Below are positions 6,301-37,989 of a stretch of DNA of 43,320 nt, in pieces. Location: IMG/VR virus record IMGVR_UViG_2541047798_000010. One strand, given 5' to 3'. The notes beneath the pieces are model-generated. The model did not search any database and was not told the DNA's origin. It saw only the letters and a list, made by a program, of their open reading frames with translations. The first letter of the stretch is position 1. Every line of letters starts with the position of its first letter. The stretch is from a virus. Its lineage: Duplodnaviria > Heunggongvirae > Uroviricota > Caudoviricetes. The translations under genes were made by a program, and so were the position numbers.

Positions 6301-6504
6301 AAGAACCACAGAACCGCCACTATAAGTGCCCGCCCCAGTTACCGTATAACCGGTATCCAGGACCAATTCTGTTACGTTCCCGTTCAGGTCAGACACCTGA
6401 ACAACCAGGTCTGATTTTCTGAAAATTCGAAAAGTATACGGAAACGATGTCGTAACGCCGTTACCGGTGTATTCGTTGTGGTCAACTTCGGTTGAGACCG
6501 TCAT
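3385..6504 (-). CDS. Tailspike/depolymerase: T7 gp17-like N-terminal adaptor, central domain with pectate-lyase-like motif plus sialidase-type RIP and two Asp-box motifs, C-terminal intramolecular-chaperone (peptidase S74-like) domain
   Basis: 1039 aa; RBS GGAG upstream of ATG 6504; motifs DFGAVGDGINDD (aa 202-213), ERIP (aa 255-258), SGDDGKTW (aa 321-328), SSDLGTSW (aa 576-583); C-terminal about 160 aa from TSDGTLKTEP resembles auto-cleaving chaperone domains. Confidence 0.9.
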   Translation of the reverse strand: MTVSTEVDHNEYTGNGVTTSFPYTFRIFRKSDLVVQVSDLNGNVTELVLDTGYTVTGAGTYSGGSVVLPSPLATGWRITIDRVLDVVQETDLRNQGKFFPEVHEDAFDYLTMLIQQCFGWFRRALMKPSLLAKYYDAKQNKISNLADPSFEQDAVNNRSMRNYVDAAIAGVVGGFGWFIQYGSGAVYRTFQDKMRDAISPKDFGAVGDGINDDSTAISACLEASSPGYKIDGLGLTFKVSTLPDVSRFKNARFLFERIPGQPLFYASEDFIQGELFKITDTPWYNAWTQDKTFVYDNVIYAPFMAGDRHGVNNLHVAWVRSGDDGKTWTTPEWLTDLHENYPTVNYHCMSMGVVRNRLFAVIETRTVRGNKLQVAELWDRPMSRSLRVYGGITKAANQQVAYIRITDHGLFAGDFVNFSNSGVTGVTGNMTVTTVIDKNTFTVTTQNTQDVDQNNEGRYWSFGTSFHSSPWRKTSLGTIPSFVDGSTPVTEIHSFATISDNSFAVGYHNGDIGPRELGILYFSDAFGSPGSFVRRRIPAEYEANASEPCVKYYDGILYLTTRGTLSTQPGSSLHRSSDLGTSWNSLRFPNNVHHSNLPFAKVGDELIIFGSERAFGEWEGGEPDNRYAGNYPRTFMTRVNVNEWSLDNVEWVNVTDQIYQGGIVNSAVGVGSVCIKDNWLYYIFGGEDFLNPWSIGDNNRKYPYVHDGHPADLYCFRVKIKQEEFVSRDFVYGATPNRTLPTFMSTSGVRTVPVPVDFTDDVAVQSLTVHAGTSGQVRAEVKLEGNYAIIAKKVPSDDVTAQRLIVSGGETTSSADGAMITLHGSGSSTPRRAVYNALEHLFENGDVKPYLDNVNALGGPGNRFSTVYLGSNPVVTSDGTLKTEPVSPDEALLDAWGDVRYIAYKWLNAVAIKGEEGARIHHGVIAQQLRDVLISHGLMEEESTTCRYAFLCYDDYPAVYDDVITGQREMPLTDNDGSIIVDEDDNPVMVMEDIIERVEITPAGSRWGVRPDLLFYIEAAWQRREMDKIKERIQSLEER

Positions 6505-6608
6505 GTTAAATCTCCAGATAGTCGCAGCACCCGTTGCGCCGCATATCTGGTTATTCTATTACCTGAAAAACCACATATGGATAAAAAGACTATAAATACC
6601 AATAGATA

Positions 6609-6623
6609 TTACCTTTCGGGTAA
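6609..6623. promoter_or_regulatory. Operator-type palindrome TTACC-N5-GGTAA (copy upstream of LexA-controlled gene, in divergent region with tailspike)
   Basis: ATTACCTTTCGGGTAAT; perfect match to the motif found at OR and OL. Confidence 0.6.
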
Positions 6624-6660
6624 TTTGCAAAACGTGCTGGATAGCAAACAAATTATTTGT

Positions 6661-6680
6661 TACTGTATAAACATACAGTT
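6661..6680. promoter_or_regulatory. LexA (SOS) box
   Basis: TACTGTATAAACATACAGTT: CTGT-N8-ACAG core intact, 17 of 20 positions match TACTGTATATATATACAGTA; 20 bp upstream of ATG 6700. Confidence 0.75.
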
Positions 6681-6699
6681 ATTGCATGGAGAAGATAAG

Positions 6700-6957
6700 A
6701 TGCAGCAGTATCACTATCCACTGGAAGACGGATTTACCGAAAGGATTCACACGCCGGGAGGCGTCAGGTCACTGGTGGAGGGATCGCACTTGATGAAATT
6801 ACTCCGGGATCTCGATAAGGATGGATTTAATGTCGATGGCCCACTTGCCGAACTGACTGCACTGATTAACTACGTCACCAGCTCACAGATGTCTATGCAG
6901 GATCTACAAACACATCTCGACTATTGTGCCGAACAATTACGAAAACAAACCAGATAA
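6700..6957 (+). CDS. Small standalone antirepressor-effector-domain protein (homolog of the C-terminal domain of the two Ant paralogs); SOS-controlled candidate antirepressor
   Basis: 85 aa from ATG 6700 (RBS GGAG 8 nt upstream); aligns with Ant C-terminus (IH-P-GV...LM-LL...DG-V-G-AELT...DLQTH-Y); LexA box immediately upstream. Confidence 0.65.
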   Translation: MQQYHYPLEDGFTERIHTPGGVRSLVEGSHLMKLLRDLDKDGFNVDGPLAELTALINYVTSSQMSMQDLQTHLDYCAEQLRKQTR

Positions 6958-6988
6958 GATTTGAAATTACCAATAGGAGTGCTTATAT

Positions 6989-7003
6989 TTACCTTTGCGG
7001 TAA
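6989..7003. promoter_or_regulatory. Operator-type palindrome TTACC-N5-GGTAA sitting in the loop of a hairpin (AGGAGTGC/GCACTCCT) at the outer edge of the left ant arm
   Basis: TTACCTTTGCGGTAA; mirrored by the copy at 10028. Confidence 0.6.
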
Positions 7004-7094
7004 ATTTACATCGCACTCCTCTTGTGCCATAGTAATCGGGCACTGGCAAAATCCAGTGCCGGGATTGGCGTCCCGGGTTACTAAGTGGCGCATA

Positions 7095-7117
7095 CCACGC
7101 CAGACGTGGTTTTTTTA
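7095..7117 (+). terminator. Rho-independent terminator inside the ant1 leader
   Basis: Stem CCACG/CGTGG followed by TTTTTTTAT; preceded by two further stem-loops (GGCACTGG/CCAGTGCC and CCGGGA/TCCCGG). Confidence 0.55.
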
Positions 7118-7272
7118 TGCGTTAAGCACAGCTATATCCGAATTATGGTGGGCTGGGCAGGGGTCCGAAAGGACGCCGGTACCACTTAGGCCGGTACGCC
7201 AACCTTGTCCAGTTCACCACCAGTAATTGGCGTTGCGGTGGTGATTAAAATCACTAAGTGGAGATAACCACC

Positions 7273-7983
7273 ATGGCTAATGCTCAAACTGCCATCTTCA
7301 AATTTGAATCTGTTAACCCTATCCGTTCCATCATTATCGATGGCCAACCATGGTTTGTAGCCCAAGACGTTTGTAGTGCGCTGCGTATCCAAAACGTCAC
7401 CCAAGCACTTGAAAAACTGGATGATGATGAAAGGTCTATGTTCAACATAGGGCATGAACATCGTGCAATTTTTGACAGCCGAGTAAAAGAGATCAACATT
7501 ATCTCCGAGTCAGGCCTCTACACACTGATCCTCCGCTGCCGCGACGCAGTGACACCAGGCACTATCCCCTACCGCTTTCGTAAATGGGTTACAGGTGAGG
7601 TTCTTCCTCAGATCCGCCGCACCGGAAGTTACATTAAAAACTCGCTCCCGCAGGAAGAACGCATAAAGATGGTTGCCGACCAGGTAGCCAACGCCACAGC
7701 ATCAGCAGTGATGCAGGCAATGAAGATAGAGAACAAAACCTACAGCGCCCCGCTGAAGCCCGGCTACCGCAGCCTGATTCATTCGCCGTCTGGTGTTCTC
7801 GGCCTGACGGAGAACTCACTGCTGATGAATCTGCTGAACCAGTTACAGGAAGACGGGCACGATGTATCGGGCGCGGCGGCGGAGCTGACCACCATGTTTT
7901 GCTACATCGTTGGTGTGAGCAAATGCCTGCGTGATATCCAGACGCACGCGGAGTACATCAACGACAAGGCTGGGTTCTTCTGA
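7273..7983 (+). CDS. Antirepressor paralog 1 (Bro-N-like N-terminal domain plus shared C-terminal effector domain)
   Basis: 236 aa from ATG 7273 (RBS GGAG); N-terminal IFKFESVNPIRSIIIDGQPWFVAQDVCSAL is Bro-N/KilA-N-like; C-terminal half nearly identical to paralog 2. Confidence 0.8.
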   Translation: MANAQTAIFKFESVNPIRSIIIDGQPWFVAQDVCSALRIQNVTQALEKLDDDERSMFNIGHEHRAIFDSRVKEINIISESGLYTLILRCRDAVTPGTIPYRFRKWVTGEVLPQIRRTGSYIKNSLPQEERIKMVADQVANATASAVMQAMKIENKTYSAPLKPGYRSLIHSPSGVLGLTENSLLMNLLNQLQEDGHDVSGAAAELTTMFCYIVGVSKCLRDIQTHAEYINDKAGFF

Positions 7984-8010
7984 CGGGCGGCGGCACAGGG
8001 ATGTGCCTTT
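7585..8010. repeat. Left arm of a near-identical inverted repeat (about 425 bp) covering the 3-prime half of ant1 and about 25 bp beyond its stop
   Basis: Reverse complement of 9045-9470 matches with only scattered substitutions; mirrored antisense ORFs 7634-7819 and 9232-9417 have near-identical translations. Confidence 0.8.
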
Positions 8011-8055
8011 AAATAATTCTGTACGATTGCAGACAGGGTGGTGAATAGAGTACTA

Positions 8056-8070
8056 TTACCTTACGGGTGA
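8056..8070. promoter_or_regulatory. Imperfect operator-type site upstream of the cargo gene
   Basis: TTACCTTACGGGTGA (one mismatch in the right half-site). Confidence 0.4.
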
Positions 8071-8107
8071 TCCATAGCGATTAGGCACCGATACAGGAGG
8101 AGCCCAC

Positions 8108-8140
8108 ATGAGAAAATTTGACGAGTACGAAGGCGTTTAA
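8108..8140 (+). other. 10-codon upstream ORF (MRKFDEYEGV) with strong RBS, followed by a terminator-like hairpin at 8161-8184; candidate attenuator leader for the cargo gene
   Basis: AGGAGG 7 nt upstream of ATG 8108; hairpin GGGGCC-ATTA-GGCCCC then GTTTTCAT; cargo start at 8200. Confidence 0.3.
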
Positions 8141-8199
8141 CATTCGGATAGTTTAATGACGGGGCCATTAGGCCCCGTTTTCATGTCTGGAGACAGTTT

Positions 8200-8739
8200 G
8201 TGTTAAGTGAAGAAATGCAATTTGCCATGGCTGTGGCTCAAATCGTAAGTGCAGTCGCGGTTTCGCTTGGCTTGTTCATAGCTATCGCTACTATTATTTA
8301 TAATGTAAATACAGCGAGAAAAGTACACACTTCAGTATTCCTTGGTGAAAGCAGGTTTGATGTAGATTATAAGAAAGGCCTATCTACTATGCGCCGCATT
8401 CACGAGTCGAACAAATCATTCCGCTCTTATATGTATCCAAGCAATGGGCAGGCTGATCTTACGGATGAAGAAAAGATAGAGAAGAGAGAAATAATTTACT
8501 GTCTAGGTTTCTACGAACGCATGGCTGTGAGCGTGAAGCGGAAAACTTATGATGAGACCATGATTAAGGAAGTATTTTACAGCTCCGTTGTAAATAACTA
8601 TCAGATTGCGCTACCTCTTATACAAGCTATTAGAGAAAAAGAAAACATAAACACATATTTTAAAGAATATGAATGGTTAGCCACACGATGGAAGGATTGT
8701 CCATTGAAGGACAAATCCCCGTGGTACAAGTTTTGGTAA
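8200..8739 (+). CDS. Membrane-anchored protein of unknown function; AT-rich cargo between the inverted ant genes (candidate superinfection-exclusion or abortive-infection protein)
   Basis: 179-aa ORF with GTG start at 8200 (GGAG 7 nt upstream) or ATG 8215; single N-terminal TM helix; markedly AT-rich; 3 of the first 8 Arg codons are AGA/AGG; followed by a strong terminator. Confidence 0.6.
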   Translation: MLSEEMQFAMAVAQIVSAVAVSLGLFIAIATIIYNVNTARKVHTSVFLGESRFDVDYKKGLSTMRRIHESNKSFRSYMYPSNGQADLTDEEKIEKREIIYCLGFYERMAVSVKRKTYDETMIKEVFYSSVVNNYQIALPLIQAIREKENINTYFKEYEWLATRWKDCPLKDKSPWYKFW

Positions 8740-8762
8740 GCCCGCAGCGCGGGCTTTTTTGT
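8740..8762 (+). terminator. Rho-independent terminator after the cargo gene
   Basis: GCCCGC-AGC-GCGGGC followed by TTTTTTGT directly after the TAA stop. Confidence 0.7.
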
Positions 8763-8832
8763 GGACGAAACAAAAGTCAGTGCTACACTCATTGACGCCA
8801 CATTGAGGTGGCTTATAGATGGAAATTTCACA

Positions 8833-8994
8833 ATGAAAAAAGCATTTGCTGCACTGTTCGTTTTGTTGTCTCTGGTAGCTTCAACTCAGGCCTTTGCCGG
8901 TCGTTGTCAGCACGACAGCGACACTGCTGCTGACGGCTCCCGCTGCGGTGGGCGTTCTGCGGATTCCCGCCCTGGCGGCGGTGGCATTCGTTAA
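8833..8994 (+). CDS. Possible small secreted Gly-rich peptide (53 aa); weak call
   Basis: Internal ATG of track ORF 8761-8994; predicted signal peptide MKKAFAALFVLLSLVASTQAFA; no convincing RBS. Confidence 0.3.
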   Translation: MKKAFAALFVLLSLVASTQAFAGRCQHDSDTAADGSRCGGRSADSRPGGGGIR

Positions 8995-9017
8995 AAACAA
9001 GGCCGCGAAAGCGGCCT
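8991..9017 (-). terminator. Rho-independent terminator for ant2
   Basis: Minus-strand stem GGCCGC-TTTC-GCGGCC followed by TTGTTTTTAA, about 50 bp downstream of the ant2 stop. Confidence 0.55.
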
Positions 9018-9018
9018 G

Positions 9019-9030
9019 TGACATGTCACG
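9019..9030. repeat. 12-bp perfect palindrome GTGACATGTCAC (copy 1 of 3)
   Basis: Exact 12-mer also at 28175-28186 and 30629-30640. Confidence 0.6.
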
Positions 9031-9044
9031 ATAGTTTCGTTTTG

Positions 9045-9470
9045 CACATCCCTGTGCCGCCGTTCTGTCAGAAGAACCCTGCTTTGTCGTTGATATACTC
9101 CGCGTGGGTCTGGATATCACGCAGGCATTTGCTCACACCGACGATGTAGCAGAACATGGTGGTCAGCTCCGCCGCCGCGCCCGATACGTCGTGCCCGTCG
9201 TCCTGTAACTGGTTCAGCAGATTCATCAGCAGTGAGTTCTCCGTCAGGCCGAGAACACCAGACGGAGAATGAATCAGGCTGCGGTAGCCGGGCTTCAGCG
9301 GGGCACTGTAGATTTTGTTCTCTATCTTCATCGCCTGCATTACTGCTGACGCCGTGGCGTTGGCTACCTGGTCGGCAACCATCTTTATGCGTTCTTCCTG
9401 CGGGAGCGAGTTTTTAATGTAACTTCCGGTGCGGCGGATCTGAGGAAGTACTTCGCCTGTAACCCATTCA
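9045..9470. repeat. Right arm of the near-identical inverted repeat (3-prime half of ant2)
   Basis: Reverse complement matches 7585-8010. Confidence 0.8.
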
Positions 9471-9760
9471 AGAAATCTGAATGCTCTCGTTCCCTCAGTC
9501 ATTGCCTCTTTGCAACGCAGAATAAGGATGTAGAGACCTGATTCTGAAACGATGGATAGTTCTTGTATTCCACCAGGGGTCTGTATTGAATACAGCCCCT
9601 TTTTGTTCCAGCCTTTTTTATCAAGTTTTCTCGCTTGTGTAACATCAATATTCAAAGCATTGCACACATCTTTGGTGACAAACCAAGGTTCTCCGTCAAT
9701 CATGAACATACGGATCTGGCAGGATGACTCAAAGGAAAAGATGGAAGGTTTGGTATTCAT
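9068..9760 (-). CDS. Antirepressor paralog 2 (Bro-N-like N-terminal domain plus shared C-terminal effector domain), inverted relative to paralog 1
   Basis: 230 aa from ATG 9760 (RBS AGGTGA); N-terminal domain diverged from paralog 1, C-terminal about 130 aa near-identical. Confidence 0.8.
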   Translation of the reverse strand: MNTKPSIFSFESSCQIRMFMIDGEPWFVTKDVCNALNIDVTQARKLDKKGWNKKGLYSIQTPGGIQELSIVSESGLYILILRCKEAMTEGTRAFRFLEWVTGEVLPQIRRTGSYIKNSLPQEERIKMVADQVANATASAVMQAMKIENKIYSAPLKPGYRSLIHSPSGVLGLTENSLLMNLLNQLQDDGHDVSGAAAELTTMFCYIVGVSKCLRDIQTHAEYINDKAGFF

Positions 9761-10027
9761 GGCGATCACCTTTGTAGTTAGGTTAATCACCACCGCTGAG
9801 ACCAATCAGATGGTGGTGAACTGTGCAGAGTTGGTCTTACCGGCTACAAAGGAACCCGGCGCACCTTTCGGTGCCCCCACACAGCCCACCATAGAATAGG
9901 TGCGCTTTACACATAAAAAAACCGCTTATGCGGCATATGTGCCTCTGTAGTAATCCGGGAGACCAATCCCGGCACTGGATTTTGCCAGTGCCTGATTACT
10001 ATGGCACAAGAGGAGTGCGATGTAAAT

Positions 10028-10042
10028 TTACCGCAAAGGTAA
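10028..10042. promoter_or_regulatory. Operator-type palindrome TTACC-N5-GGTAA at the outer edge of the right ant arm
   Basis: TTACCGCAAAGGTAA; mirror of the 6989 copy, with the same downstream stem-loops and terminator in inverted orientation. Confidence 0.6.
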
Positions 10043-10065
10043 TGATAAACGCTAAGAAATATTAA

Positions 10066-10084
10066 AATCAACCATATTTGGTTA
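10066..10084. promoter_or_regulatory. Second palindromic motif ATCAACCAnATTTGGTTA (AACCA-N4-TGGTT), copy 1
   Basis: AATCAACCATATTTGGTTA; near-identical element at 36927-36945; degenerate AACCACATA versions at 6569, 27150 and 34987, each next to an operator-type site. Confidence 0.35.
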
Positions 10085-10189
10085 ATGCGTATAAAAGAGC
10101 CAGCAGCGAGAAATTGTGCCGCGACGTAAAATAACGAGCATCTGCTGGCTTACAACCAGCGATGTTTCAAATTTGTCACTATTATCAAC

Positions 10190-10543
10190 GTGCCATTCCA
10201 CGGCGCAGAGCTTTATGTTGTCAATCATAACGGCGAACCATACACCCCAATGAAACCTATCGTTGAAGGCATGGGTATGGATTGGGCTTCACAGTTTACG
10301 AAAATGAAGCAGCGGTTTAAAACCTGCATTGTGAAAATCACAATGCAGCTTCCTGGGGATGAACAGCGCCGTGAGATTATTTGTTTGGCACTTCGCAAAC
10401 TTGCTGGCTGGTTGCAAACCATCAGCCCTAACAAAGTCCGCCCTGAAATCCGCGAAAGTATTGAAACATCAACCGTATCGATATCGACACGGTTGATTAT
10501 GACGGTAACTTATTTCCGTGTGTCCTATTTCTCCCGCCACTAA
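10190..10543 (+). pseudogene. Possible gene remnant; ORF with GTG start and no RBS
   Basis: 117-aa track ORF; normal GC content, no ribosome-binding site, ends directly against the minus-strand AT-rich gene. Confidence 0.25.
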
Positions 10544-37404: not shown

Positions 37405-37989
37405 ATGAAAAGTATCCAGGACGTCCGCAGGCAAAATCTCAACGACTTGATCGACCGTGAATTCAATGGTGTTCAGACGCGGATGGCAGAAAAACTTGGA
37501 ACTCAGGCAAATCTGGTAAACCGCTGGGCTCTTGGCAAGAAGGTTATCGGCGACCAGGTTGCACGAAAAATTGAAGCTGCCGCCAATAAACCCCGTAACT
37601 GGCTTGATATTGATCGTTCGCTTTCTCAGGAGGGTTTTCAGCCTGTCGGCCCGAGCGATATAGGTCAGTTGGCGGCTCACAACCTGGAACGCTGGATGAG
37701 CGAAAGCCGCGACCTTTCAACACAGGGAAAACTTCACCGCGCATCCGGCGTCGCCCAGGTGACAATCAGCCGCCTGTTAAACAATGAGGTCAGCGTTTCC
37801 ATTTCCACTCTGGAGAATGTTGCATCCGCATTCGGGCGTCACGGATATGAACTACTGATTCACCCGCACGACCCTGCGACTATCAACTATGACCGCTCAC
37901 GCTACGCATTGTTACCCGAAACCGAGAAAGCAAAGATCGAAAGTTACATTGAATTTGTCATCAACCAGAACGAAAAAAGCAAACAATAA
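37405..37989 (+). CDS. Prophage repressor with two tandem HTH (XRE-type) domains and no LexA-like autocleavage (S24) domain
   Basis: 194 aa; HTH-like segments near aa 20-60 and 95-150; divergent from cro-like gene; own terminator downstream. Confidence 0.7.
   Translation: MKSIQDVRRQNLNDLIDREFNGVQTRMAEKLGTQANLVNRWALGKKVIGDQVARKIEAAANKPRNWLDIDRSLSQEGFQPVGPSDIGQLAAHNLERWMSESRDLSTQGKLHRASGVAQVTISRLLNNEVSVSISTLENVASAFGRHGYELLIHPHDPATINYDRSRYALLPETEKAKIESYIEFVINQNEKSKQ

Follow-up and report, generated by a model that had tools for sequence, protein, structure and literature searches.

An exchangeable accessory slot in a Uetakevirus-like prophage

The 43,320-nt stretch of DNA analysed here (the window) carries, at positions 8071–8739, what its sequence marks as a self-contained accessory cassette lodged in a hypervariable slot. 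The cassette holds a gene on the plus strand (8200–8739, GTG start) for a 179-aa protein of the family DUF4760, with a transmembrane (TM) helix and a predicted cytoplasmic all-alpha domain, preceded by a 10-codon micro-ORF and a GC-rich hairpin. The host element can be classified as an epsilon15/phiV10-like (Uetakevirus) prophage of E. coli: the flanks match the Uetakevirus phages phiv142-3, TL-2011b and phiV10, the prophage adjoins yfgI and carries a GH19 endolysin, and the gene order is of the epsilon15 type. The ORF at 8200–8739, listed in the first-pass annotation of this DNA, is present at that place, and the compositional bias described there was borne out by the counts. Its GC content of 39.1%, compared to 48.2% for the window, falls in the 2nd percentile of 540-bp windows, and the rare codons AGA, AGG, ATA and CTA account for 12 of its 179 codons; at 67 per 1000, they are more frequent here than in the long ORFs of the window, where the figure is 29.5.

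The gene had been proposed to be exchanged accessory cargo, and comparison with related phages agrees, with sharp borders and alternative cassettes in the same slot. Among 79 sister-phage loci, we distinguished at least nine cassette types, all of them AT-rich (38–45% GC), and phages with other cargo have identical borders on both sides. Of 5426 E. coli genomes, 36 had the DUF4760 cassette and ~530 the flank. Another cassette type of this slot is a YafO-toxin pair; PADLOC gave no match for the other cassettes of the slot. At most loci with DUF4760, a terminator of the gene's own lies directly 3′ of it, and there is no conserved partner.

On its left, the variable cassette is bounded by an operator-like palindrome, TTACC-N5-GGTGA (8056–8070), just past which every cassette type begins. 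There are 12 such sites in the window, compared to 0.06 expected, and pairs of them flank the HTH repressor gene (37405–37989). A putative promoter of the slot, situated in conserved backbone sequence of the phage, weak and recognised by inference (plus strand, 8027–8056; −35 TTGCAG at 8027–8032, −10 TACTAT at 8051–8056), scored below the threshold of the consensus scan; the same sequence also precedes other cassettes. The slot promoter carries a candidate operator of the phage repressor, arguing that in this phage DUF4760 may be repressed in the lysogen. The right border, common to all cassette types, is a strong intrinsic terminator on the plus strand (GCCCGC-AGC-GCGGGC followed by T6, 8738–8762). 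Its part at 8738–8756, with 8 bp including 6 GC and then T6, was the top match of the terminator scan, in line with the strong terminator that had been noted after the gene. The overall anatomy, comprising the promoter region with the operator palindrome, the leader, the hairpin, the DUF4760 gene and the common terminator, is well supported, and we consider it very likely to be correct.

The locus was originally delimited as 8056–8994; all of its elements were located, although the end of this span also covers a separate plus-strand ORF (8833–8994) belonging to the conserved flank rather than to the cargo. This ORF encodes 53 aa with a signal peptide, matches phrog_14503 ('membrane associated protein') and was found in ~530 of the 5426 E. 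coli genomes. It is followed by a bidirectional terminator (9000–9017) and the palindrome GTGACATGTCAC (9018–9029), the two together occupying 9000–9029. On the other side, a terminator-like hairpin on the plus strand (GGCACA-GGGA-TGTGCC followed by TTT, 7988–8006) ends the upstream antirepressor gene. The same hairpin is kept in phiv142-3 and TL-2011b, and it forms with 9044–9062 the two arms of a perfect inverted repeat of 19 nt.

The membrane-anchored DUF4760 protein

The first-pass annotation could not assign the 179-aa protein to a known family; this proved wrong. It matches Pfam DUF4760 (PF15956) with an E-value of 1.6e-30 and 106.6 bits, against a cut-off of 25, over profile positions 2–141 of 141, as well as phrog_2284 (E-value of 1.9e-71), and all 60 of 60 diverse relatives match DUF4760 too. 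These matches place it in a named, uncharacterised family, which the protein library divides into 2334 clusters at 50% identity, and its architecture is that of the family (~150–200 aa, an N-terminal TM helix and a single helical domain). The start of the gene is preceded by the Shine-Dalgarno (SD) sequence GGAGA (plus strand, 8189–8193), 6 nt before the GTG, an arrangement that is conserved, and the N-terminal LSEE is retained in homologues despite synonymous change.

The single N-terminal TM helix reported earlier was recovered: residues 15–33 form the sole strong hydrophobic segment (mean Kyte-Doolittle value of 2.63), and beyond residue 40 hydropathy never rises above 0.85. Because the net charge of the flanks is −2 on the N side and +2 on the C side, a single-pass protein with N-out/C-in topology is predicted. 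The TM helix has a conserved face of polar and small residues (Q14, G24xxxA28), and in the compact cytoplasmic helical domain E106 and W164 are invariant and E119, R145 and T152 nearly so.

Pfam and PHROGs searches returned only DUF4760 or unknown families, with no toxin or antitoxin family among them, and PADLOC-DB v2 contained no family matching the protein at E ≤ 0.1, and none for its neighbours. A PDB sequence search with the family profile gave only a chance TM match, and a fold search of BFVD nothing informative. For the EP domain of plant EDS1/PAD4/SAG101, Foldseek gave non-significant E-values of 0.65–3.6; no sequence or profile homology to the EP domain was detected in PDB or Pfam, and a literature search yielded nothing on bacterial EP-like proteins in an anti-phage setting. 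Nor did we find in the literature an experiment on any DUF4760 protein, the family being mentioned only in passing.

Homologues of the protein, distinct from the copy in the window, reside in the variable locus between Q and gpA of P2-like prophages, the old/tin hotspot (L004/L005 and L012/L013). In the catalogue of anti-phage hotspots of P2, DUF4760 together with a 4TM partner is listed as system no. 3, ranking third in frequency among the occupants, with 1102 occurrences in Table S5B and at least 197 rows with DUF4760 in Table S5 (Rousset 2022, PMC9122126). The P2 version belongs to the same family (52% identity), has a comparable leader (MKKMYDEFDGF*) and hairpin, and likewise occupies a variable prophage locus, one that in P2 also houses validated anti-phage systems (PMC9122126). 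In contrast, the window cassette has no counterpart of the 280-aa 4TM partner, and both its phage type and its slot differ, the latter lying under a candidate repressor operator. System no. 3 figures there as a catalogue entry only: Tables S2A and S2B, which list the tested systems, contain none of its sequences, and the leader is not remarked on in the portions of the text and tables covered here (PMC9122126). Alignment with hhalign of DUF4760 to the 1TM proteins of two validated systems from that work, the AC1 2TM+1TM+TIR system and the RT-nitrilase+1TM system (Rousset 2022), revealed no relation.

A conserved leader micro-ORF and hairpin

The leader micro-ORF (plus strand, 8108–8140), with ATG at 8108 and TAA at 8138–8140, encodes MRKFDEYEGV* in 10 codons plus stop. 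It had been described as strongly translated, in accord with the SD sequence AGGAGG located 7 nt before its ATG (plus strand, 8095–8100); every relative likewise has a strong SD ahead of its leader. Across 83 DUF4760 loci spanning Uetakevirus-, P2- and lambda-like prophages, 81, with 36 distinct leaders, keep the core [DE][DE][FYW][DE][GW][VF..]-stop, which can be abbreviated as ...DE[FY][DE]G[VF]-stop and reads DEYEGV-stop here. Prophages that retain the leader include Uetakevirus-like ones of Klebsiella, lambda-like ones of Yersinia and P2-like ones of E. coli and Providencia; a subfamily with ~28% identity has it too. The invariant columns of the leader correspond to codon positions 1 and 2, with third positions varying; aspartate is encoded by GAT 22 times and by GAC 14 times, and glutamate by GAG 21 times and by GAA 15 times. 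This pattern argues for selection on the sequence of the peptide rather than on the RNA. The degenerate leader pattern has one match in the window, the leader itself, and the micro-ORF is not annotated in the RefSeq relatives.

The leader is followed, 18 nt past its stop, by a GC-rich hairpin with a U tract resembling an intrinsic terminator (plus strand, 8158–8181): CGGGGCC-ATTA-GGCCCCG at 8160–8177, extendable to 8158–8179, and then TTTT. With only four U, it was missing from the consensus terminator scan. The terminator-like hairpin reported before the gene is thus present, and since it is kept together with the leader and the gene in 81 of the 83 related loci, the combination goes beyond chance. 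In 25 aligned leaders, the hairpin is the sole conserved RNA structure, with compensatory changes in 3 of 6 pairs (RNAalifold), and no conserved antiterminator structure emerged from this alignment; the minimum free energy fold of 8040–8230 is unexceptional (z = −1.67). The distance from the leader stop to the stem is 17–20 nt in 31 of 36 leaders, and the SD and start of DUF4760 come within ~5–25 nt after the U tract, so that an internal promoter past the hairpin is impossible. Stop-codon read-through was also considered and rejected: 27 of 36 leaders keep this frame open as far as the end of the U tract, compared with 8 and 16 for the other frames, which is suggestive but not universal.

The heptapeptide of the leader also terminates micro-ORFs in other phage contexts. 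DUF4760 was missing from 58 of 80 loci fetched by the heptapeptide pattern, and outside DUF4760 loci a terminator follows the DEFDGF micro-ORFs in 30 of 57 distinct loci, compared to 7 of 11 in the control, and hence is no general feature of these micro-ORFs. Occurring without DUF4760 and often without a terminator, the heptapeptide may have a function of its own. A T4-like ORF ending in DEFDGF is annotated just as 'hypothetical protein'. A literature search for the leader peptide sequences returned nothing relevant, and an Rfam search over 6400–10300 assigned the leader to no family, the only hits being C4, isrK and a1b1, in ant cassettes. The combination of the leader peptide and the hairpin seems to be a previously undescribed control element.

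Attenuators of the trpL/pheL type and nascent-peptide sensors of the TnaC, MsrDL and ErmBL type are the known precedents for control by a leader peptide. As in attenuators, a short, strongly translated ORF stands here before an intrinsic terminator, which transcription has to pass to reach the gene, and, as in ribosome-acting peptides, the selected residues are C-terminal, beside the stop. Unlike these precedents, the leader has neither a run of regulatory codons nor a conserved antiterminator. On balance, we give about an even chance to the reading of leader and hairpin as an attenuator of DUF4760 of the nascent-peptide type. DUF4760 would then be made solely from transcripts that pass the leader terminator, with the leader holding its level low and conditional, and the extent of read-through would most likely depend on the ribosome as it translates the conserved leader peptide or terminates on it. 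Against this reading, neither antiterminator RNA nor a ribosome position overlapping the terminator was found: with the stop 17–20 nt before the stem, a ribosome at the leader stop would end ~5 nt before it, so that simple steric melting is not expected to link translation to termination. Furthermore, the hairpin in the window carries merely four U residues, and the leader motif is also found without a downstream terminator.

Candidate roles of the cassette

The explanation that accounts best for the locus, although we hold it only tentatively and at slightly less than even probability, is an accessory cassette in which a leader-gated DUF4760 protein acts in conflict at the inner membrane. By association, the protein can plausibly be given an anti-phage or conflict role, with a likelihood that reaches even at most, because the family occupies the P2 hotspot as system no. 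3 and another cassette of the slot is a YafO pair. DUF4760 would most likely act in phage-phage or phage-host conflict, either through exclusion or through an abortive, membrane-perturbing effect once oligomerised through its TM helix. Single-pass or few-pass prophage membrane proteins of exclusion and abortive infection include P22 SieA, T4 Imm, HK97 gp15 and lambda RexB, and signalling defences employ TM-anchored ligand-gated effectors, such as Cam1 and Cap15. Like both groups, DUF4760 is predicted to be a small inner-membrane protein encoded in a prophage accessory locus, with an oligomerisation-type motif in its N-terminal helix and a cytoplasmic domain after it; unlike them, it has no sequence similarity to their members, and a signal-producing partner gene is absent.

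A further reading, possible but doubtful, is that the ...DEFDGF-stop micro-ORFs form a widespread and so far undescribed class of phage peptides, ribosome-acting or free, and that DUF4760 is a relative of the EP-domain fold. Such peptides may gate termination as nascent chains or, as free peptides with an acidic/aromatic C-terminus, may be aimed at a conserved host target. DUF4760, which accompanies the micro-ORFs most faithfully, would then be a membrane-anchored fold relative of the plant EP immune-signal receptor domain.

In another, rather unlikely scenario, the 10-aa peptide would inhibit DUF4760, or serve as its ligand, by binding to the cytoplasmic domain, in a two-component module akin to toxin-antitoxin systems. 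Ahead of the terminator the peptide, probably short-lived, would be produced in excess, and it would restrain the scarce DUF4760 made beyond the terminator, and its loss upon infection would free the membrane-damaging protein. Selection on the peptide rather than the RNA fits this scheme, as do the gene order and expression ratio reminiscent of antitoxin-toxin operons, the lack of an RNA switch in the RNAalifold analysis, and the conserved basic and aromatic residues of the domain, which could hold an acidic/aromatic C-terminal peptide. Sister cassettes in the slot likewise pair a small ORF with a larger one, the YafO toxin among them. The cassettes with type II toxin-antitoxin modules of the YafO family share the slot, the borders and the arrangement of a small upstream and a larger downstream ORF with the DUF4760 cassette; in the latter, however, the upstream ORF is merely 10 codons long, a terminator stands between the two, and DUF4760 has no known toxin fold. 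Against the two-component scheme, the heptapeptide, which occurs without DUF4760 in 58 of the 80 pattern-fetched loci, is not a DUF4760-specific partner, and we know of no ten-residue antitoxins.

Classic prophage defence morons are not repressed in the lysogen, and the slot is a poor fit with a constitutive prophage defence gene because its candidate operator predicts such repression. Conceivably, the slot would in this phage be derepressed only upon induction or infection and DUF4760 would serve the phage itself, in host takeover, in exclusion of competitors during lytic growth, or by sensing or sequestering a small molecule of host immunity through an EP-domain-like fold. We judge this role in the lytic cycle or in counter-defence improbable, given that the same cassette occupies lysogen-expressed moron positions in P2- and lambda-like prophages, with promoter-like sequences of its own. 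Furthermore, no link to the EP domain was found at the sequence level, the Foldseek E-values are not significant, and none of the examined loci has an adjacent gene for TIR or another signal-making enzyme; unlike EDS1-family proteins, DUF4760 is a membrane-anchored single domain of 179 aa without a lipase-like domain.

The leader might also be an independent gene or small RNA, with the hairpin as its own terminator and DUF4760 expressed by constitutive leak-through without any sensing. DEFDGF-type micro-ORFs do stand alone in many phages, the succession of SD, micro-ORF and terminator resembles a dual-function small RNA, and RNAalifold revealed no antiterminator. Yet this too has a low probability in our estimate: leader and gene are linked near-obligately (81 of 83 loci, three prophage types, down to ~28% protein identity), the spacing is fixed, as is the abutment of SD and start, and at L055, a rearranged locus, leader and 5′ arm have gone at once.

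Finally, the first-pass annotation had likened the gene to sieA of P22-like phages by position; homology or positional equivalence to P22 SieA is highly improbable. In its favour, the gene adjoins the ant region, lies between tailspike and ejection-type genes and encodes a small inner-membrane protein. Yet the phage is a Uetakevirus rather than P22-like, the family is DUF4760 with no match to SieA or any other named exclusion or defence family in Pfam, PHROGs or PADLOC, and P2-like and lambda-like prophages carry the gene at positions that bear no relation to this one. What stands of that annotation is the exchanged cargo, the membrane anchor and the selected leader with its hairpin, whereas the sieA position and the unassignable family do not.

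DUF4760 is among the commonest unexplained occupants of the accessory hotspots of enterobacterial prophages. The invariant leader and its terminator offer a handle on the timing of DUF4760 expression and may reveal a new type of peptide-based control common to several phage families. To our knowledge, the EP fold has so far been associated with plant TIR signalling; should the likeness to EP domains prove functional, a bacterial or phage membrane protein would be tied to this plant fold. Sharply bordered, filled by at least nine cassettes and fitted with a promoter under candidate operator control, the slot represents a compact source of candidate conflict genes of Uetakevirus.

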